From contig JBAQWP010000083.1 in assembly GCA_049298975.1 (NCBI GenBank), positions 1 through 36,732 on the forward strand: DNA of 36,732 nucleotides. Direction: 5' to 3'. Made by a program: the position numbers and the translations under genes. The notes beneath the pieces were generated by a model, which saw nothing but the letters and a program-made list of their open reading frames with translations, was not told the origin of the DNA and did no database searches. Positions 7,017 to 31,339 of the stretch are shown in pieces. Position 1 is the stretch's first letter. Each line of letters starts with the position of its first letter. This DNA comes from Minisyncoccia bacterium. Lineage in GTDB: Bacteria; Patescibacteriota; Minisyncoccia; Phycocordibacterales; DATDWN01.

Positions 7017-8816
7017 CTATTGAAGTACTGCTTTAATACGTCTAACACCTGCTGATACGGCTTCTTCTTTGGCAATTTTAAACTCTCCCAAAACCTTCGT
7101 ATTGTCCACATGTGGTCCACCACAAAACTCCTTCGAAAAGGCACCCTCAATATCACCACCAATATAATAAACATTTACTTCATCAGGGTACTTTTCTCCA
7201 AAGAAATGCAGGGCTCCAGTTTTCTCCGCTTCTTCTTTCTTCAAAACTACTTTGTTAACTGGTAACCCTTCCGAAATTTTTTGATTTACTATTTCCTCCA
7301 CCCTTTTCTTTTCATCATCAGTCATTTTTCTATCAAAAGTAAAATCAAATCGAAGCCTTTCAGAAGTAATATTACTACCCTTCTGCTGAACCGTTGTGCC
7401 TAGAACTTCCCTGAGAGCCTGATGTAGAAGATGAGTAGCTGTGTGATACTTAGTTTCCATTTCACCAGTACTTCCAAGACCCCCCTTAAACTTCTGCTCA
7501 GATCCGACTCTAGAAAGTTCCTGATGCTCTTTCATTTTCTTATTAAATGAATCTAAATCAATAGTCTGACCTTTCTCTTTTGCTAGTTCTTCAGTGAGCT
7601 CAATCGGAAAACCATATGTTGTAAAAAGGACAAATGGATCTTCTCCTTTTTCAAACTCCTTCAATCCATTATCAATTGTCTTTATAAAATTTCTCACTTC
7701 TTTATCTATCTCCATAAATGTATATGGCTCCTTCTCAGAGTAGATTCCACCCTTATCTGTAAAATACTTAGTGCTTGAATAAATTCTATAATATTCATTC
7801 AGTATAGGTAAGAATATATTATCCTCATAATTGCCTTTGAAACCAATTTTTTTTGCCTGAATGACTGCCCTTCTTATTAATCTTCTTAAGATATAGCCCT
7901 GATCCTTATTGCTTGGTCTAACTCCATCAGCTATAAGCAGTGCTGACGCTCTTAGATGATCCGCAATAATTCTTGCAGGCTTATCAGAATAACTCTCAGA
8001 ATTTTCCTTAATTATCGAAATTACTGTGTTAAATAAATCTGTTTCAAAGACACTCTTTTTACCCTGCATAACTGCAACTACTCTTTCAAACCCGGCTCCA
8101 GTATCAACGTTTTGTTTTTCTAGCTTTCCTGTAACCTTTCCATTTTTAGAAAGATACTCCATAAAAACATTGTTCCAGATTTCCACCACTCTCTGTTCAT
8201 CATCAGCTTTTAAGTATTCCTCCAAAGTTAGACCTTTGTTTAATTCACCACTTAGATCATAAAACATTTCTGTATCAGGACCGCATGGACCATTGTCCCC
8301 CGCAGACCACCAATTTTTATCTTTAGGTCTAAAATATATTCTTTCGCCGGTCACTTCATTTTTTTCAAAAATTTCTCGCCAAATTTGTGCAGATTCTTCG
8401 TCTTTAGGAGCATTCTCGTCTCCCTCAAAACAAGTGACATAAAGTCTTTGTGGATCTAAACCAAAACCCTCCTCTTTTGATGTTAATAACTCATAACTCC
8501 AGCTTATAGACTCCTTCTTCCAATAGTCACCCAAAGACCAATTCCCGAGCATTTCAAAGAAAGTTAAGTGTGTATTGTCCCCTACTTCATCTATATCGTT
8601 AGTTCTTACGCATTTCTGAACATCCACAAGTCTTTTTCCTTGCGGGTGCTCTTGTCCCAAAAGATACGGCACAAGTGGTTGCATACCTGCAGTGTTAAAT
8701 AAAACAGATGGATCATTTTCAGGCACTAAGGATGCCGAAGGGATAATGGCGTGCCCCCTTTTCTCAAAAAATTTTAAAAACCTTTCTCTGATTTCATTTG
8801 AAGTGAGTGTTTTCAC
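7017..8816 (-). CDS. alaS: Alanine--tRNA ligase (compact, 599 aa)
   Basis: N-terminus IRERFLKFFEKRGHAIIPSASLVPENDPSVLFNTAGMQ. Editing-domain motifs HTATHLLHQALR and CGGPHV are present. GTG start at 8816. Confidence 0.92.
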   Translation of the reverse strand: MKTLTSNEIRERFLKFFEKRGHAIIPSASLVPENDPSVLFNTAGMQPLVPYLLGQEHPQGKRLVDVQKCVRTNDIDEVGDNTHLTFFEMLGNWSLGDYWKKESISWSYELLTSKEEGFGLDPQRLYVTCFEGDENAPKDEESAQIWREIFEKNEVTGERIYFRPKDKNWWSAGDNGPCGPDTEMFYDLSGELNKGLTLEEYLKADDEQRVVEIWNNVFMEYLSKNGKVTGKLEKQNVDTGAGFERVVAVMQGKKSVFETDLFNTVISIIKENSESYSDKPARIIADHLRASALLIADGVRPSNKDQGYILRRLIRRAVIQAKKIGFKGNYEDNIFLPILNEYYRIYSSTKYFTDKGGIYSEKEPYTFMEIDKEVRNFIKTIDNGLKEFEKGEDPFVLFTTYGFPIELTEELAKEKGQTIDLDSFNKKMKEHQELSRVGSEQKFKGGLGSTGEMETKYHTATHLLHQALREVLGTTVQQKGSNITSERLRFDFTFDRKMTDDEKKRVEEIVNQKISEGLPVNKVVLKKEEAEKTGALHFFGEKYPDEVNVYYIGGDIEGAFSKEFCGGPHVDNTKVLGEFKIAKEEAVSAGVRRIKAVLQ

Positions 8817-15197: not shown

Positions 15198-16232
15198 TTA
15201 GGCAATCTCATACTTTCCTTCTTTGTTTTTCTTGAAGAATTTTGGATTTTGGAGATTTACCATTATGGTATTTTCCTTAACATACCTTTCTTTGAGAACC
15301 TTCTTTATGATCTCATCTTTAGTTAGTGGACCATTTTTCTGAATTATATTTTTGACTACATCTTTTACTACCCCAGACATATAGCCCCACTCTGAAAGCG
15401 CGTAAAGTCCCCTTCCAACCAAAACAAATCTTGGGTCCTTGATAAGCTCGTTATGAGTTGTTGCTACGTGAGCTTTCTTCTTGAACAATTCTGTAATTAG
15501 TTTTGCCACTTCTCTGAAGTGAATTGGTGATCCATGCCTTCTTATAACTAAATATGCATAGTCTCTCATTCCTTTAGCGTTTATATTTGAAGATCCAGTC
15601 TTGCCCCACTCCCCTAGAGGGTTCTTATCAATAAGCTTAGAAAGCTCCAACCACCTCCTAGCGATCTCCTGGTTCTTGTACTTTTCAGAAACATCCTTCA
15701 AATGCTCCAAAAACTTCTCGATCATATCTGATTCTAGTAAAATCTCATCATCTGAAAGCTTTGAATATAGATCCCTAATAGCCTGATGAACTCTTTTTGA
15801 CAAGTCTTTGTCTACTGTCCATCTATGTTTAAACTCCTCGTCCTCCTTATCTTTTGTAAATTCATCTCCAACAACCAAAAGGAAGTGGACTTGATTTTGA
15901 GTAGATTTATCCTTTGACAGGTGCTTTAACAAAGCCTCTTCAGATATTACTGAACCCAAGTCAGCCATAGTGGTTCTTAACTCGTCAAAAACCGCCTTTT
16001 CTTTAGCATATTCCTTAGACTTTCGAATATTCTGTATTGAATAGTTCTCGATCTGTCTTACTCTTTCCCTGGTGATTTTGTACTTCTTACCAATAGCCTC
16101 AAGAGTCATTCGTTTTGTGTCATTACCAAGACCAAAACGAGACACAATAACATCCTTTGATCTGTCTCCTAAAACACTTAAAAGTTTCTTTACAGACTGC
16201 TTTGGCTTAAAATTTGCTGTTGTTTTATCCAT
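15198..16232 (-). CDS. Sigma-70 region-4-like HTH plus HARE-HTH domain DNA-binding protein
   Basis: 344 aa. MTLEAIGKKYKITRERVRQIENYSIQNIRK matches the region-4 HTH of sigma-70. The C-terminal part (EVAKLITELFKK...FVLVGRGLYALSEWG) resembles a HARE-HTH domain. Confidence 0.65.
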   Translation of the reverse strand: MDKTTANFKPKQSVKKLLSVLGDRSKDVIVSRFGLGNDTKRMTLEAIGKKYKITRERVRQIENYSIQNIRKSKEYAKEKAVFDELRTTMADLGSVISEEALLKHLSKDKSTQNQVHFLLVVGDEFTKDKEDEEFKHRWTVDKDLSKRVHQAIRDLYSKLSDDEILLESDMIEKFLEHLKDVSEKYKNQEIARRWLELSKLIDKNPLGEWGKTGSSNINAKGMRDYAYLVIRRHGSPIHFREVAKLITELFKKKAHVATTHNELIKDPRFVLVGRGLYALSEWGYMSGVVKDVVKNIIQKNGPLTKDEIIKKVLKERYVKENTIMVNLQNPKFFKKNKEGKYEIA

Positions 16233-16340
16233 TATAATTGTTAATTACTAAATTACACTTAAAAGCACCTGTCAAATAGTGCCCCTTATTTCTATCACCT
16301 ATGAGAAAATAAGTCAAGCCTTGACCACAACTACCTATTC

Positions 16341-18722
16341 TTATACAACAAAATTGAGAATTTTATTACTTACGTAGATTACCTTCTTAATTTCCTTACC
16401 TAAAAGCCACTTTTCAACGTCTGGATTAGACCTTGCAATCCTGACAGCCTCCCCTTCCAAAGCTTTGTTTGGTATTACTATTTCTGCTCTGACTTTACTG
16501 TTAATTTGAACGGCAATTTTTATCTCCTGCTCTTCAAGCTTACTAGAATTCCATTTTGGCCATTTCTCCTTGACTAGTAGTGTTTTATGACCAAGCTCGC
16601 ACCATAACTCTTCTGTTATATGTGGAGCAAACGGATTAAGAATTTTTAAGATAGTTTCAAAATCACCCTTTCCAACTTCACCAATTCTCTCTACCTCATT
16701 TAGTAATATCATCATGCATGAGATCGCCGTGTTAAACGACATTGACTCAATATCTTCAGATACCTTCTTAATAGACTTATTGAGTAGCACCTCAAATTTT
16801 ACATCTTTTTTTGTTTTTACACTTACCTTTTCTTTTACTCTCCAAATTCTTTCCAAAAATCTTCTAACACCAAATATATTATCCTCGTTCCACGCTACGG
16901 ATTGCTCAAATGGCCCCATAAACATTTCGTACATTCGCAGGGTATCAGCACCATACATTTTTATTATTGAGTCCGGATTTACAACATTGCCAAACCTTTT
17001 TGACATTTTTCGTCCATCTGAGGCAATGATAAGTCCCACGTCCTGTAGTTTTCTGAATGGCTCTTTAGTATTTACTACCCCAATGTCATACAGAAATTTA
17101 TGCCAAAACCTAGCATATATAAGATGTCTGGTGGCATGCTCTGCCCCACCAACATACAAATCCACCATGTTCCAATATTTTTCTTTCCTTTTATCCACCA
17201 AAGCCTTCTTATTTTTTGGATCCATGTAACGCAGATAGTACCAAGAGGATCCTGCCCATTGTGGCATAGTGTTTGTTTCCCGTTTATAAGCTTTGCCACC
17301 CCTCTTTACATTTACCCAACTGGATATTTTAGATAGAGGCGATTCCGCTTCTCCGGTTGGTTCATAAGACTTTACTTTTGGAAGTTTAAGGGGAAGATCT
17401 TTTTCTGAAAGTTGAACTACTTTTCCATCTGCCCTAAGTACTGGAATTGGCTCACCCCAATATCTTTGTCTTGAAAAGACCCAATCCTGAAGTTTATACT
17501 TGGTGACAGTCTTACCCATTACAAATCTGGTAATCTCTCTTTTTGCTAAATCGGACTTCATTCCATCAAATTGACCTGAATTAATAAGCAAACCAGGTCC
17601 TGTATAAGGGCCAACTCCAGTGCCACCAGAAACAACCTCTTTTACTGGTAAATTATATTTTTTTGCAAAAATAAAATCTCGTTCATCATGTGCCGGAACA
17701 GCCATTATCGCTCCAGTACCATATGTAGATAGGACATAGTCTGCAATATAAACAGGAATCACATCATTTGTGCCAGGATTGACAGCGCTAACACCATTTA
17801 GCTTAACACCATTCTTTTCTTTTTGATCATTGGTTCTCTCTATTTCTGGCTTGTTTTTTACAGCTTCAATATATTCAGAAACTTGTTCTGTATTTTCTAT
17901 TTGGCTCCATAGTTTTTGCACGAGCTCGTGCTCTGGCGCAAGAACAACATATGTAGCTCCAAAAATAGTGTCTGGGCGGGTTGTAAATACTTTTATCTTT
18001 TCGCTACCACGCCATACATCAAAATCGATCTCAGAGCCCTCACTCCTCCCGATCCAGTTTTTCTGACTTTCTTTTATGGACTCAGGCCAGTCTAGAGCTT
18101 CTAAATCCGAAAGTAACCTGTCAGCATACTTTGTAATCTTTAAAACCCATTGACGTATAGGTTTCTTTTCCACCACCGATCCACACCTCTCGCATTTTCC
18201 ATCGGCCAAATCTTCATTTGCTAAGATAGTTTTATCAACTGGACACCAATTTACCGGTTCGTTGGATTCATAAGCTAAACCTTTCTCAAGAAGTTTTAAG
18301 AAAATCCACTGAGTCCACTTATAAAAACCAGGATCAGTTGTATTAATTTCCCTACTCCAATCGTAGTCTAAACCAATAATTTCAAGCTGTTTTTTGAATC
18401 TTGCAACATTTTTCTTCACTGCAACTTCAGGATTGGTTTTAGTTTTTATCGCATAATTCTCTGCAGGTAACCCAAACGCATCAAAGCCCATAGGATGCAG
18501 AACATTAAAACCCTGCATTCTCTTCATTCTAGAGATAATATCAGTGGCTATATAACCCTTTGGATGTCCGACATGCAAACCCTCACCGGATGGATAAGGA
18601 AACATATCCAGAATATAATATTTTTTCTTTTTCGAACCATCCTCAGTTTTAAAAGCTTTTTTCTTTTCCCACTCCTTCTGCCACTTCTTTTCAATTTTCT
18701 GATGGTTATAGTCTTTTTTCAT
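16341..18722 (-). CDS. leuS: Leucine--tRNA ligase
   Basis: YILDMFPYPSGEGLHVGH (HIGH) and KMSKRFGN (KMSKS) motifs. The track ORF extends to 18920 and overlaps the upstream gene and its terminator. The ATG at 18722 (MKKDYNHQKIEKKWQ...) gives the canonical N-terminus. Confidence 0.93.
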   Translation of the reverse strand: MKKDYNHQKIEKKWQKEWEKKKAFKTEDGSKKKKYYILDMFPYPSGEGLHVGHPKGYIATDIISRMKRMQGFNVLHPMGFDAFGLPAENYAIKTKTNPEVAVKKNVARFKKQLEIIGLDYDWSREINTTDPGFYKWTQWIFLKLLEKGLAYESNEPVNWCPVDKTILANEDLADGKCERCGSVVEKKPIRQWVLKITKYADRLLSDLEALDWPESIKESQKNWIGRSEGSEIDFDVWRGSEKIKVFTTRPDTIFGATYVVLAPEHELVQKLWSQIENTEQVSEYIEAVKNKPEIERTNDQKEKNGVKLNGVSAVNPGTNDVIPVYIADYVLSTYGTGAIMAVPAHDERDFIFAKKYNLPVKEVVSGGTGVGPYTGPGLLINSGQFDGMKSDLAKREITRFVMGKTVTKYKLQDWVFSRQRYWGEPIPVLRADGKVVQLSEKDLPLKLPKVKSYEPTGEAESPLSKISSWVNVKRGGKAYKRETNTMPQWAGSSWYYLRYMDPKNKKALVDKRKEKYWNMVDLYVGGAEHATRHLIYARFWHKFLYDIGVVNTKEPFRKLQDVGLIIASDGRKMSKRFGNVVNPDSIIKMYGADTLRMYEMFMGPFEQSVAWNEDNIFGVRRFLERIWRVKEKVSVKTKKDVKFEVLLNKSIKKVSEDIESMSFNTAISCMMILLNEVERIGEVGKGDFETILKILNPFAPHITEELWCELGHKTLLVKEKWPKWNSSKLEEQEIKIAVQINSKVRAEIVIPNKALEGEAVRIARSNPDVEKWLLGKEIKKVIYVSNKILNFVV

Positions 18723-20136: not shown

Positions 20137-20208
20137 AAGTATAGTAGGTTACTTCTAATACTTGATTATACCATATTATAAGAAAGCTAACTCAATAGAC
20201 CCGAATTT

Positions 20209-20231
20209 TCCCAGCGGTTAAACCGCTGGGA
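20209..20231. repeat. REP-like perfect hairpin, copy 1
   Basis: TCCCAGCGG-TTAAA-CCGCTGGGA (9-bp stem, 5-nt loop). Confidence 0.9.
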
Positions 20232-20235
20232 TGTG

Positions 20236-20895
20236 CTAGAAAAAATGCCGTCCAATCAACATTTCTATAGCATCTTTATCTTCCCTGGATTCTAGGATAA
20301 CCTCCAGTGCAGATTCAGAAAAATCTCTGTACTCTTTAGTTGATTTAAATTGTTCTAAGATTATTTCCTTTTTACAAATATTTCTAGAACTTTCCCCTAC
20401 ATACTCTTTCCAGCTACTCACCTCAATCCCAGCGGTTAAACCGCTGGGATTGCTTGGCTGGTGAACTCTATTATTTAAGTTAATGTAGGCGCTTAAATAT
20501 AAAAGTTGCTCGTTTGAAGTGACTAGCACTGACTTAAAAGTGCCCTGAAATAAGGAACCTGATCTTCTATACTTACTATTAAAGTACCAAGTATATCCTC
20601 CAGTAAGTCTTTTCATGAATTCACTAATCCCACCTTCAGACATCTCTTTCAGCAGAAAATGAAAGTGGTTTCTATTTAAACAGTAAGACACAATTTCAAC
20701 TAGCTTGGTTTTAATTTTGTGGTCACCTAATTTAATGTCTCTTAAACTTCCTATTGGCTCTTTAGAATTGAATAATTCTAAACACTTAATTAGTCTACCC
20801 AAATCCCTCTTGTCTTTAATAATTATTCCCTTATCAACACCTCTGTTATATATATGATAGTACTCACCGACTACTATTTTTTCTCTATTTGCCAT
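20236..20895 (-). CDS. Y1 (HUH) transposase, IS200-like / REP-associated tyrosine transposase-like
   Basis: 219 aa. YHIYNRG N-terminus, HUH motif NHFHFLL and a Tyr motif YLSAYINLN. Confidence 0.8.
   Translation of the reverse strand: MANREKIVVGEYYHIYNRGVDKGIIIKDKRDLGRLIKCLELFNSKEPIGSLRDIKLGDHKIKTKLVEIVSYCLNRNHFHFLLKEMSEGGISEFMKRLTGGYTWYFNSKYRRSGSLFQGTFKSVLVTSNEQLLYLSAYINLNNRVHQPSNPSGLTAGIEVSSWKEYVGESSRNICKKEIILEQFKSTKEYRDFSESALEVILESREDKDAIEMLIGRHFF
20427..20449. repeat. REP-like perfect hairpin, copy 2 (inside the transposase ORF)
   Basis: The identical 23-mer, in frame, encoding NPSGLTAGI. Confidence 0.9.
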
Positions 20896-20916
20896 TCTTA
20901 GATGTTACCACAAGTT

Positions 20917-20939
20917 TCCCAGCGGTTAAACCGCTGGGA
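20917..20939. repeat. REP-like perfect hairpin, copy 3
   Basis: The identical 23-mer, in the same orientation as copies 1 and 2. Confidence 0.9.
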
Positions 20940-20955
20940 AGAGGCTCTAATTTTG

Positions 20956-21963
20956 TTAGATTCTGAACTCAATTACGTCGCCGTCTTTTACTATATACTC
21001 CTTCCCTTCAGTTCTTACTTTTCCCTTATCACGAGCAACAGAATAAGAACCGCAAGCAATAAGATCATCACAATGTACGACTTCCGCGCGAATAAACTTA
21101 TCCTTGAAATCATTATGAATTGCAGTTCCAGCCATAGGCGCACTCCAACCTTTTGTTATGGTCCAAGCCCTAGTCTCGTCCTCCCCGGTTGTAAAGTAAG
21201 TGATTAAGTTTAAAGTCTCGTAACTTTTCTTTATCAAATCTTCGAATCCTTTTTCAAACACAGGATCAACTTCAACATACGCTCCAGGTATTCTCTCTTT
21301 AACATCCAAAACATTTTCGGAACTTGCCTCCGAAGTATTTAAACAATACAAAATAGGTTTAGCGGTCAGAAGGTGCATACCCTTTACAACCTTTTTCTCT
21401 TCTTCGTTTAGCTCAAGAGTGTTGACTAACTCACCACGTTTCAAAACCTCCAAAACTTTTTGCAAAACATTTTCCTCAAAAATTGCATCCTTTTTCCCGG
21501 ACTTAACATCCTTTTGTAAGTTTCCAATACGTTTAGTAATAGTTTCCGTATCCGCTAATACTAGCTCTAGATTTATTACCCCAATATCTCCCAGGGGATC
21601 AATTTTTCCATGCACATGTATAACATCATCATCTTTGAAAACTCGTACCATTTCTAAAATAGCATCAACCTCCCTAATGTTTGATAAAAATTTATTGCCA
21701 AGACCCTCGCCTTCACTCGCACCTTTAACTAGACCAGCGATATCAACAAACTCAATTATGGCCGGAATAGTTTTTTTAGAATTTGAAAGTTTTGTAAGTT
21801 TTTCAAGCCTTTCATCTGGCACCGGAACAATACCCACCGACGGATCAATAGTACAAAATGGATAATTCTCCGCCGGCACAGATTTTTTTGTCAGCGCATT
21901 AAAAAGTGTGGACTTCCCCACGTTTGGCAGACCCACGATTCCTATACTTAAATTTGAAGCCAT
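20956..21963 (-). CDS. ychF: Ribosome-binding ATPase YchF
   Basis: 335 aa. IGIVGLPNVGKSTLFNALT (P-loop), ENYPFCTIDP, and a C-terminal TGS-like domain (...KEYIVKDGDVIEFRI). Confidence 0.92.
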   Translation of the reverse strand: MASNLSIGIVGLPNVGKSTLFNALTKKSVPAENYPFCTIDPSVGIVPVPDERLEKLTKLSNSKKTIPAIIEFVDIAGLVKGASEGEGLGNKFLSNIREVDAILEMVRVFKDDDVIHVHGKIDPLGDIGVINLELVLADTETITKRIGNLQKDVKSGKKDAIFEENVLQKVLEVLKRGELVNTLELNEEEKKVVKGMHLLTAKPILYCLNTSEASSENVLDVKERIPGAYVEVDPVFEKGFEDLIKKSYETLNLITYFTTGEDETRAWTITKGWSAPMAGTAIHNDFKDKFIRAEVVHCDDLIACGSYSVARDKGKVRTEGKEYIVKDGDVIEFRI

Positions 21964-29817: not shown

Positions 29818-31056
29818 TCATAAAAATAACAAATCTCTATCTAAATCCTCACTGTCCGTCCCCTTCACTTGTCTTGTTTTTGCTTTATGGGTTGAGGCGA
29901 GATAGACAACTTTTTTACCAAACTTTTCTTCGAGGTTATCTATACTTTCGTGAATTTTCTCAAATCTTCTAGCCGTGTCCCCTTCTCCAAATAAATCCAA
30001 CTGCCTCAGAGGCTGTGGTGTCAGATCACACAAAGTCACCCCGGTGGTTCTGTACACTTTCATTCTGAAATAAACCTTTCTAAAATATTTATAAACTAGG
30101 GTGATTAGTACTTCTGGCGCATTGGTTGGAGTTTCTATAGGAAGTTCAAACGAATGATAATGAAAATCTTGAGTTTTAAGAAAAAAATTTATCCTCTTAG
30201 TAACTAGTCCATAATGACGAGCCTTCCGGCAAGCTTCTTCTATATTTTTCGAAAATTGAGACATTAAAAAACTTTCATCACTAGTCGGTGGATGAAAAGT
30301 TCTAGTTTTTTGGATGGAATCAAAAGAAGTTTTAGTCTCACTATCTACTTGCATGACATTAACTCCTTGAAGCTCGTGCCAGATAGCCAGAAACGGTTCC
30401 GATAAATTTTCTTTTATCCAATCTTCCTTTAAGTTCACAAAATCTAGTGCAGTTTTTATACCTTTAAACTCTAGCTCTCTGGAAGTTCTCGGACCAATAC
30501 CCCAAATTTTTCCAACAGGATTTTTTTCTAGAAAATTTATAGCTGTTTCTTTGGTTATCACAGTAAGCCCATTTGGTTTTTGCCATTTGGAAGCAACTTT
30601 GGCCAGACATTTTGTAGGAGCCAGACCAACAGAAACAGAAAGTCGAAGCTCTTCAGTAACTTCTTTTTTTATTCTCTCTGCAATCTGCTTGTATGCCATA
30701 TATAGTGGTTTGTCGAGACCTGTCAGATCTGCAAAACACTCATCAATACTGTATTCCTCTACTTCATCTGCATATCTTCTCACAATATCAAACATCTTCT
30801 GTGAATAATCTGCATAGGACTTGTAATCCCCTGGCAAAACCAAAACACCAGGAAAATCTTTTTTCAGTTTAAAAATGGGATAACCACGGGTCACACCAAG
30901 CGCCTTTGCTTCATACGATGCAGCAGAAACTATACCGCGCTCTTCGCCGGTAACCACAGGCAGTCCCCGAAGTTTCTCATTTTTTGCAACTTCACAAGCC
31001 ACAAAGAATGAATCCCCATCCATGTGAAAAATTACCTTTTCTCTCTTTTCTCTCAT
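29818..31056 (-). CDS. dinB: DNA polymerase IV (Y-family)
   Basis: IFHMDGDSFFVACE, SIDECFADLTG and a HhH region (KIWGIGPRTSRELEFKGIKT). The track start 31092 is a TTG that coincides with the -35 box. The ATG at 31056 (MREKREKVIFHMDGD...) is preferred. Confidence 0.9.
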   Translation of the reverse strand: MREKREKVIFHMDGDSFFVACEVAKNEKLRGLPVVTGEERGIVSAASYEAKALGVTRGYPIFKLKKDFPGVLVLPGDYKSYADYSQKMFDIVRRYADEVEEYSIDECFADLTGLDKPLYMAYKQIAERIKKEVTEELRLSVSVGLAPTKCLAKVASKWQKPNGLTVITKETAINFLEKNPVGKIWGIGPRTSRELEFKGIKTALDFVNLKEDWIKENLSEPFLAIWHELQGVNVMQVDSETKTSFDSIQKTRTFHPPTSDESFLMSQFSKNIEEACRKARHYGLVTKRINFFLKTQDFHYHSFELPIETPTNAPEVLITLVYKYFRKVYFRMKVYRTTGVTLCDLTPQPLRQLDLFGEGDTARRFEKIHESIDNLEEKFGKKVVYLASTHKAKTRQVKGTDSEDLDRDLLFL

Positions 31057-31062
31057 GGGTAT

Positions 31063-31092
31063 ATTATAAGTGAACGTTAGTTCACCTGGCAA
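31063..31092 (-). promoter_or_regulatory. dinB promoter, probably giving a leaderless mRNA
   Basis: Minus strand reads TTGCCA - 18 nt - TATAAT - ATACCC - ATG. Only 6 nt separate the -10 from the start codon, and there is no SD. Confidence 0.55.
31072..31083. promoter_or_regulatory. Cheo-type LexA (SOS) box candidate
   Basis: GAAC-GTTA-GTTC (GAAC-N4-GTTC palindrome) lies in the spacer between -35 and -10 of dinB. Confidence 0.5.
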
Positions 31093-31110: not shown

Positions 31111-31339
31111 TCACCTATTACATTTTTCATCAACAGAATATTTTGCTGTTGCAAAATTTCTTTCTACTCACCTCTTCACGGGTTCCGTAGATGATGAAAA
31201 ATATAATAGGTTCGATGAAACAGTAAACATCTCTCGTTGAACCTATATTTTTTATGGGGCTCTGCGGAGTCTGTGAAAGACGAGCAGGAAGAAAATTTTT
31301 GGCAGAAAATTATTCTGGTCCCAGAAAAAATATAGGTGA
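31111..31339. repeat. MITE-like element with ~55-nt imperfect terminal inverted repeats (repeat copies B and C)
   Basis: The left arm at 31111..31170 starts TCACCTATTA.... The right arm at 31284..31339 ends ...TATAGGTGA. The arms are roughly 70% complementary. The centre holds the hairpin ATAGGTTC...GAACCTAT (31206..31246). Confidence 0.45.

Follow-up and report, generated by a model that had tools for sequence, protein, structure and literature searches.

The TnpA-Y1 proteins have been divided into 12 subclasses (Quentin, Siguier, Chandler and Fichant 2018, PMC6006769). For one of these, subclass 2.4, which corresponds to Group 4 of the REP-associated tyrosine transposases (RAYTs) of Bertels, repetitive extragenic palindromes (REPs) placed in frame inside the tnpAREP genes have already been reported (PMC6006769), and intragenic REPs are known from several species, many of them located in genes of replication or repair (Di Nocera et al. 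2013, PMC3733652). The 16-mer which flanks the Group 4 genes has about 14 occurrences per replicon, and the range for Groups 1 and 4 is 12-14 (PMC5581495). The subject of this report is a comparable arrangement found in a 36,732-nt stretch of DNA of a Minisyncoccia bacterium (contig JBAQWP010000083.1), the whole of which is referred to below as the window. In this DNA a gene encoding a 219-aa protein of the HUH/Y1 type is bracketed by two copies of a perfect hairpin and contains a third copy in frame.

We consider it probable that the protein is a REPtron-like, domesticated Y1 nuclease, whose cognate hairpins are placed at the borders of its gene and, in frame, within a tolerant linker, and that exchange, whether driven by the enzyme or linked to replication, keeps the copies alike. 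This reading builds on the anatomy of the locus, the conservation of four hairpin sites, the concerted evolution and covariation of the copies, the synteny of the gene, the fold and catalytic residues of its product, and the copies dispersed elsewhere. The features of the window locus are as follows.

20209..20231, minus strand: downstream REP-like hairpin (10-bp stem, 3-nt loop), 4 nt past the stop codon
20236..20895, minus strand: HUH/Y1 gene (TnpA-Y1, RAYT-like), 219 aa, recognised by Pfam Y1_Tnp, homologs and Foldseek
20424..20452, minus strand: in-frame internal hairpin at family site S2, a 29-nt palindrome with a 13-bp stem (core 23-mer 20427-20449)
20485..20487, minus strand: catalytic tyrosine Y137 (YINLN), read from the sequence and invariant in the alignment
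20659..20667, minus strand: HUH motif H77-F78-H79, read from the sequence, in invariant alignment columns
20902..20910, minus strand: putative extended -10 element TGgTAACAT, 6 nt before the ATG, proposed from a family-level statistic
20916..20940, minus strand: upstream REP-like hairpin (11-bp stem), 21 nt 5' of the ATG and 16 nt past the ychF stop

The family to which this gene belongs is found in the ultra-small bacteria of the Candidate Phyla Radiation (CPR). It resembles subclass 2.4 in that the Y1 gene is flanked by cognate REPs, in-frame copies occupy peripheral or variable regions of the protein, and the REP copy number is low. The insertions of subclass 2.4, however, are located between HuH and Y, whereas those of the CPR family lie before HuH (aa ~65) and after Y (aa ~155). 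Subclass 2.4 is further characterised by the motifs NH[IFV]H, WQ and YIxNNP and by GT[AG]G “double-foot” REPs; the NHFH of the CPR family fits this description, but its FQ, its Y[IV]NLN without P and the absence of a GTAG foot do not. The taxa also differ (Cyanobacteria and Bacteroidetes in subclass 2.4), and CPR taxon names were not found in the main text and supplements of PMC6006769. The closest match in motifs is subclass 2.1 (TnpA-Y1/TIRYT, Group 1 of Bertels), with NH[YF]H, FQ, Y[IV]xLN, a length of ~220-240 aa and a tail with conserved SS. This subclass carries NP and was reported to have terminal inverted repeats (TIRs) instead of REP-like hairpins, whereas the CPR family has tightly flanking and in-gene hairpins and no P.

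As regards behaviour at a fixed locus, the CPR Y1 gene matches the RAYTs of Bertels et al. 2017 and not IS200, and the number of dispersed copies, as counted in 522 kb of flanking DNA, is comparable to that of Groups 1 and 4, far below that of Groups 2 and 3 (PMC5581495). The REPtron of E. coli (RAYT, subclass 2.2; Protein Data Bank (PDB) entry 4ER8) shares with the CPR locus a chromosomal Y1 gene, in the CPR case probably a single one, bracketed by its own REPs, the co-evolution of enzyme and REP, and a structural similarity of the proteins (Foldseek E 4e-4), although their sequence similarity is negligible. The REPs of E. coli are imperfect, GTAG-footed and extragenic and occur in hundreds, in contrast to the CPR palindromes, which are perfect, footless, very few and present also within the gene. 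Insertion sequences (ISs) of the IS200/IS605 type (IS608, ISDra2) have in common with the CPR unit the HUH/Y1 fold, the subterminal hairpins bounding ~0.7 kb of DNA and a presumed single-stranded DNA (ssDNA) chemistry. Unlike them, the CPR unit has no Y---Q motif, no tnpB and no identical units in multiple copies. It differs further in that its synteny is conserved, its protein has an additional C-terminal domain and its open reading frame (ORF) contains hairpins. Intragenic REPs and the Rickettsia palindromic elements offer a further parallel, being small in-frame palindromes in protein loops, notably of repair and replication genes (compare the recG copy described below). The Rickettsia elements, which a report by Ogata and co-workers from the year 2000 is said to have described as inserted in frame in functional proteins, are ~100-150 bp long, whereas the CPR unit measures 23-35 nt and belongs to one particular Y1 gene; we know of no cognate transposase gene identified for the former.

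The in-gene hairpin as such is not without precedent, since in-frame REPs in tnpAREP genes of subclass 2.4 (PMC6006769) and intragenic REPs in general (PMC3733652) have been reported. What is new in the CPR variant is the lack of the GTAG foot and of Y---NP, the different insertion sites, the minimal copy number and the CPR hosts.

The window locus and its Y1 protein

The 23-mer TCCCAGCGGTTAAACCGCTGGGA is present in exactly three copies on the plus strand of the whole 36.7-kb window (20209-20231, 20427-20449 and 20917-20939). They are identical at 23/23 positions and have the same loop orientation, with a chance expectation of zero. The exact-match search confirmed the original prediction of three identical hairpins, one of them in frame. 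A scan of the window (GC content of 37.9%) for GC-rich perfect hairpins and for the core GCGGT...ACCGC revealed no further or degenerate copy. When folded as ssDNA, the downstream, internal and upstream copies form strong hairpins (-12.6, -16.1 and -13.2 kcal/mol, with z of -5.9, -7.5 and -5.2). The distances originally given for the two outer copies, 5 nt past the stop codon and 22 nt before the ATG, had each to be corrected by one nucleotide, to 4 and 21 nt. The internal copy encodes NPSGLTAGI (aa 149-157) and the full palindrome (S)NPSGLTAGI(E); the peptide starts 8 residues after YINLN and not immediately after the tyrosine motif, as had been stated. The window thus has an upstream copy, a copy at the family site S2 and a downstream copy; a copy at the second in-frame site of the family, S1, is absent. 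Since the identical locus was recovered in two independent assemblies (L156 and L157), the arrangement is not an assembly artefact. A clustered regularly interspaced short palindromic repeat (CRISPR)-like array was also considered and rejected, there being only three copies at irregular spacing (218 and 490 nt) and no cas genes.

The 219-aa ORF matches the Pfam family Y1_Tnp (PF01797) with E 3.2e-8 and 34.2 bits, above the gathering cutoff of 23, and contains both HFH and YINLN, in agreement with its prediction as an HUH/Y1 protein. The catalytic residues, whose loss had been named in advance as a counter-argument, are retained: none of the 28 aligned homologs deviates at H77, H79 or Y137. More than 3600 homologs of ~220 aa were found, and those with a named source come mostly from Parcubacteria/Paceibacteria (CPR); the best of them is only 65% identical to the window protein. 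The motifs of the family are NH[FY]H, FQ, Y[IV]NLN followed by N, D, W, F or Y and never by P, and a tail with SS(W). No phage protein family was matched by the Y1 protein.

An AlphaFold2 model based on the 28-sequence alignment reached a predicted local distance difference test score (pLDDT) of 78 and a predicted template modelling score (pTM) of 0.81. The sole internal segment of this model with pLDDT below 50, aa 147-154, coincides with the hairpin-coded peptide, and the S1 loop of the window protein (aa 51-60) has a mean pLDDT of 55; because of these low values, both in-frame sites are placed in flexible loops flanking the catalytic core. Site S2 lies between the tyrosine helix and a family-specific C-terminal tail, which opens with a nearly invariant SSW. 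The best PDB matches obtained with Foldseek were IS608 TnpA (2a6m) and the E. coli RAYT with its REP hairpin (4er8), accompanied by 2vjv and 2xqc. The family profile, compared with the sequences of solved structures, gave at best E ~0.7 (to ISDra2 TnpA); the kinship to solved Y1 structures therefore shows by fold alone, the sequence similarity being negligible. Taken together, the Pfam match, the invariant HxH and tyrosine and the Foldseek similarity predict a Y1 fold that is catalytically intact.

Cognate hairpins across the family

Eighty homologous metagenome loci were fetched and scanned for palindromes, and site occupancy was counted over 81 loci. A cognate palindrome ending ~16-25 nt 5' of the ATG was found in 56 of the 81, and one starting 1-15 nt past the stop codon in 60. 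Within the gene, in-frame copies are present at S1 (aa ~62-68) in 32 loci and at S2 (aa ~148-162) in 43, and loci scored as hairpin-less have shorter or imperfect palindromes at the same sites. Nearly all genes of the set possess the two flanking palindromes, to which the majority add one or two copies in frame. The original preference for REP insertion or gene conversion over chance is well founded, given the zero chance expectation and the recurrence of the pattern throughout the protein family.

More than 20 stem types were distinguished among the loci, including ACTTGGCGGT, ACTTGGGGGT, ACTTGGACGT, ACTTGGAAGC, ACTTAGCGGT, ACTTGGACAC and GTGGCGGT, with (C/T/A)CAGCGGT in the window clade, and all copies of one locus share the same type. 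In most loci the hairpins are flanked as in (C)CAC-TTGG...CCAA-GTG(G), whereas the window has T-CCCAGCGG. In the 28-homolog alignment the segment corresponding to NPSGLTAGI is SG(L/S)TAG in the window clade and (L)GGxTAK elsewhere, and many homologs have a second LGGxTAK in an N-terminal variable loop; peptides of these types result from the translation of palindromes such as CTTGGCGGT-nnn-ACCGCCAAG or CCCAGCGGT-nnn-ACCGCTGGG. The conserved NP..AGL segment that had been attributed to related proteins was not recovered, as the closest homologs have KI-SGLTAG without NP and the peptide varies with the hairpin. Nor does the NP of NPSGLTAGI represent the NP of class 2, which would fall at N141-N142; it consists of AAT and the CCC of the stem.

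Palindromes of other kinds were also seen near Y1 genes. At L109:692-720, 2004-2032, 2176-2204 and 2293-2321 and at L088:760-798 there are several copies of a separate palindromic repeat family (CCCCGTTAGAAATCTGATTTCTAACGGGG) and of CGCGGCGGCG-type palindromes, which means that these CPR contigs harbour REP-like elements of more than one family.

The copies of a locus evolve in concert. On average, 0.74 of 23 nt separate the S2 copy from its own flank (median 0), compared with 6.5 for the flanks of other loci, and the own flank is its closest match in 34/39 loci. In all of the 12 loci with identical arms, the S2 loop triplet equals the loop of the own flank in either orientation, where 2.4 such cases were expected. 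Moreover, a gap-free alignment of 39 distinct S2 segments showed that 14 of the 15 stem pairs have changed on both sides, with 69 compensatory cells against 22.3 +/- 4.5 in shuffled data (0/500 shuffles reached 69). Register-shifted controls dropped to 10-22 cells, and the covariation reaches the outer stem pairs. The peptides found at S2 in different loci include LGGLTAK, LGGETPK, LGRPTSK, LGSSASK, LGHPMSK and SGLTAG. Since the stems covary and the peptide changes together with the hairpin, the protein sequence at S2 is dictated by the structure of the nucleic acid and not the reverse.

These data bear directly on the idea that the internal copy merely reflects a conserved peptide or a coincidence, which we regard as practically excluded. 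It is true that SG(L/S)TAG is found in this position in close homologs as well; nevertheless, a peptide-level constraint leaves the identical copies in the non-coding flanks without explanation, chance predicts none, and across the family the peptide is replaced wholesale with the hairpin while the dyad symmetry is preserved. The pure coding conservation which the original prediction had listed as evidence against it is therefore not what the family displays.

The outer stem extensions differ between the copies of one locus, yet stay complementary (CAC..GTG versus CAAC..GTTG). In L135 two Y1 paralogs situated 6 kb apart have each their own hairpin type, which constitutes evidence for specificity between enzyme and hairpin. 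The second full paralog of this locus occupies positions 16227-16905, and its distinct hairpin type is found at S2 and after the stop codon. Often the loop of one copy is the exact reverse complement of the loop of another copy in that locus, e.g. in L088, L096, L104 and L128 (TTGAA/TTCAA, GAA/TTC, GAG/CTC, GGC/GCC). Such a flip-flop is typically seen where palindromes are inverted or are inserted in both orientations. Around full hairpins, about a dozen loci have tandem repeats of orphan half-arms. These repeats begin and end at the junction of stem and loop, which suggests cleavage or template switching at the hairpin tip. Repeats of this kind are located at L085:5427-5475, L087:6629-6668 and 7359-7395, L088:664-703, L129:1512-1553, L132:4643-4686, L139:38-86 and L148:10624-10660, and are exemplified by CACTTGGCGGT-cgg-CACTTGGCGGTTTAACCGCCAAGTG and ...CCGCCAAGTG-ACCGCCAAGTG-ACCGCCAC.

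The positions of the two in-frame sites do not change between clades whose proteins are ~50% identical and whose stem sequences are unrelated. The internal stems, whose outer pairs covary, reach 17 bp and are often longer than those in the flanks. That the same two codon positions are used throughout the family might be due to selection and not to the history of insertion. The in-gene hairpin would in that case be a functional cis element, serving for self-targeting or autoregulation or as a protected master copy that re-seeds the flanking and dispersed REPs, and both the identity of the in-gene copies with the flanks and the position of the upstream copy next to the promoter are consistent with such a role. 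We entertain this explanation, which overlaps with that of a domesticated nuclease, as a tentative possibility: several lineages, the window among those without S1, have lost S1, S2 or both and yet keep the flanking copies and an intact gene, and the precedents in subclass 2.4 have been read as neutral insertions in peripheral loops (PMC6006769).

Locus stability, dispersed copies and the promoter region

The hairpin-tnpA-hairpin unit of the window lies, as first described, between genes for a Cupin_2 protein and YchF, both identified by Pfam. Within the window clade (the window and L077-L081; 58-67% protein identity) the Y1 gene always follows ychF in the same orientation, with leuS a few genes downstream, and other clades have conserved neighbours of their own. 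No second near-identical hairpin-gene-hairpin unit was found in the 81 loci, tnpB is not adjacent to the Y1 gene in the window or the compared loci, and a tblastn search of plasmids and phages yielded only relatives of 23-41% identity, none of them close. The gene is probably fixed in the chromosome and domesticated. The correlation between Y1 and ychF divergence (r=0.10) says nothing about co-inheritance, the comparison being blurred by the two length forms of ychF. The YchF protein encoded upstream of Y1 has ~272-291 aa in one form and 335-336 aa in the other among otherwise syntenic loci (L077-L081 versus window 20956-21963).

It may be asked whether the ~730-bp hairpin-gene-hairpin unit is an active IS of the IS200/IS605 type, with the flanking hairpins as its left and right ends. 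The conserved ychF-Y1-...-leuS order, kept across deep divergence, disfavours a jumping IS200, and a second identical copy is missing from every locus, the tandem paralog of L135 having a different hairpin. The protein, moreover, has Y---N in place of the Y---Q of IS200 and possesses a C-terminal tail domain, tnpB is lacking, and relatives on plasmids and phages are only distant. The compact layout, with subterminal hairpins hugging the Y1 gene, the structural likeness to IS608 TnpA and a partial segment in L087, which reaches from S2 to the downstream hairpin and is linked to a fragment of lepA at a distance of 7.4 kb, do speak for mobility of this kind; on balance we judge it very unlikely. 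Of the two layouts proposed at the outset, REP/RAYT therefore stands, in the form of a RAYT/REPtron, while IS200 is contradicted by the conserved synteny and by the absence of near-identical extra copies of the gene.

A scan for TCCCAGCGG-N5-CCGCTGGGA was carried out across 185,579 species genomes. Of its 75 matches, 74 lie outside the CPR, each as a lone palindrome and for the most part in actinobacteria of high GC content (Promicromonospora, Isoptericola and others). A copy in a related genome does exist: the exact window 23-mer is located at L039:1001-1023 (Zambryskibacteria, MHWN01000014), in frame in a recG-like helicase gene, between motifs I and Ia. It encodes SPSGLTAGN and explains an insertion of 11 aa that Mfd/RecG structures do not have; the 8-kb L039 locus is devoid of Y1 genes. 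Outside the Y1 gene such hairpins appear to be rare. A non-cognate hairpin (ACTTGGACATCCGATGTCCAAGT, the type of L111) was identified at L148:6255-6277, in frame in murD (ALGHPMSKF). It cannot be shown to be a clean insertion, as murD is longer by only 2 aa than solved MurD structures, compared with 11 aa for recG.

A chimeric ORF of 98 aa is present at L087:14532-14842, where a duplicate of a 5' fragment of lepA is joined, precisely at the cognate hairpin, to the S2-to-downstream segment of Y1. The ORF ends with a second hairpin, and the intact lepA is located at 15428-17218. The chimera looks like a hairpin-bounded partial element which was copied 7.4 kb away. The dispersed copies, this fusion, the half-arm repeats and the loop flips are footprints of breakage and rejoining, or of template switching, at the hairpins at the DNA level.

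The upstream hairpin is closely associated with a putative promoter. In 72% of loci the 45 nt upstream of the ATG (L076-L155 and the window) include a -10-like hexamer whose end is 5-10 nt (mode 6) away from the start codon, compared with 7% of control windows. A TGn extension is present in 48/76 loci, often supplied by the ...CCAAGTG end of the hairpin, and in most loci the extended -10 (TGnTAtaAT) directly follows the upstream hairpin. An extended -10 ending ~6 nt before the ATG implies a leaderless mRNA and places the hairpin in the -15 to -40 region. In the window the -10 match is weaker (4/6), and a standard -35/-10 scan found no promoter upstream of the gene; judging from the family, a leaderless mRNA may be produced from the extended -10 here as well.

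Such a location, combined with perfect dyad symmetry, is what might be expected of a duplex operator. The palindromes could be bound symmetrically by a dimer, e.g. via the helical C-terminal domain, and serve to autoregulate transcription instead of being ssDNA substrates. Related proteins of subclass 2.1 carry helix-turn-helix (HTH)-like tails (PMC6006769), and neither strand is singled out by wobble pairs, the mismatches in the stems comprising 41 G.T and 53 A.C (p=0.26). This explanation we find unlikely, as it does not account for the copies after the stop codon, inside the ORF and in recG and murD; outer extensions that differ but remain complementary favour pairing over half-site recognition, the loops flip freely, and Pfam detected no DNA-binding domain in the C-terminal tail of the window protein.

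REPs downstream of ORFs are known to stabilise transcripts. In the window, copies follow both the Y1 and the ychF stop codons, and the hairpins might have nothing to do with the enzyme and function solely in RNA, where they would stabilise mRNA 3' ends, terminate transcription or be targeted by RNases (transcript stabilisation by REPs is discussed in PMC3733652). We consider this highly improbable. An RNA-only role is not favoured because no T-run follows any of the three window hairpins, no Rfam family matches them, and the sense strand has no excess of G.T (that is, G.U) over A.C; for lack of T-runs, a reading as intrinsic terminators was rejected. In addition, the hairpin type tracks the Y1 lineage, each paralog having its own type, and the upstream copy, being 5' of the inferred leaderless start, would lie outside the gene's own mRNA.

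A further repeat of the window bears no relation to the Y1 hairpin. It is a 49-nt inverted repeat (3-51 and 31122-31170), 94% complementary, with arms 31 kb apart, one at the start of the contig and the other intergenic, just upstream of a DinB/Pol IV-like gene (29818-31092, minus strand).

Proposed mechanism and significance

According to the reading that we favour, that of a REPtron-like domesticated nuclease, the protein would be an HUH/Y1 single-strand DNA nuclease-ligase paired with its own REP-like hairpin, which it would bind and cleave as ssDNA. Two hairpins tightly bracket the gene, the upstream one adjoining the putative extended -10 of a leaderless mRNA and the downstream one following the stop codon. 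The third copy is accommodated in a predicted disordered linker between the catalytic-tyrosine helix and the C-terminal “SSW” tail domain, where the protein may tolerate any Gly/Ser/Thr/Ala-rich peptide that the palindrome happens to encode. Ongoing homogenisation, resulting either from cleavage and rejoining by the enzyme or from template switching or gene conversion between palindromes, would keep the copies identical, and enzyme and substrate would therefore co-diversify by lineage. From time to time a hairpin would also be copied to another place in the genome, in some cases in frame into a loop-coding part of a housekeeping gene. The enzyme and its hairpins may also be coupled to the promoter in an autoregulatory manner.

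Several observations weigh against this interpretation. The protein scores only 17.7 bits with NCBIfam NF047646 (REP_Tyr_transpos), below the cutoff of 80, and the family does not have the class-2 signature Y---NP. Neither GTAG nor GTGG is found 5' of the stem, i.e. the canonical GT[AG]G foot is missing, and the loop orientation of the copies is inconsistent across loci, with no evident strand rule of the IS608 kind. Cognate copies outside the gene appear to be few, amounting to 6-8 in 522 kb of flanking DNA (~1 per 65-87 kb, a density that refers to flanking DNA only), and the exact-stem hairpin occurs in a single CPR contig (recG) among the 185,579 species genomes. Finally, a double-stranded operator would be an equally good reading of a perfect palindrome beside a promoter.

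Few domesticated transposases are as poorly understood as those of REP/RAYT systems, in particular as to why the enzyme is retained. The CPR system is a minimal one, composed of a gene with its two to four perfect hairpins, to which about a dozen copies dispersed over each Mb are added, at fixed loci of streamlined genomes. It comprises thousands of natural enzyme-hairpin pairs, a ready covariation data set for the rules of hairpin recognition by Y1 enzymes, and the strong stem covariation inside an ORF makes it a clear case of nucleic-acid structure dictating protein sequence. It is also a tractable system in which in-gene REPs can be tested as neutral passengers or regulatory elements. Annotators should bear in mind that a peptide of the LGGxTAK/SGLTAG type in a CPR protein, for instance RecG or MurD, is the footprint of a REP.

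A more far-reaching proposal, about which we are rather doubtful, is that a large, unclassified, CPR-wide Y1 subclass keeps its substrate hairpin in the coding sequence as a functional element, i.e. as a protected master copy and/or a self-regulated target, with enzyme-driven gene conversion holding the copies identical. If this were true, the specificity of the enzyme and its substrate would be inherited, and would diversify, as one unit in genomes too small to maintain a large REP population.

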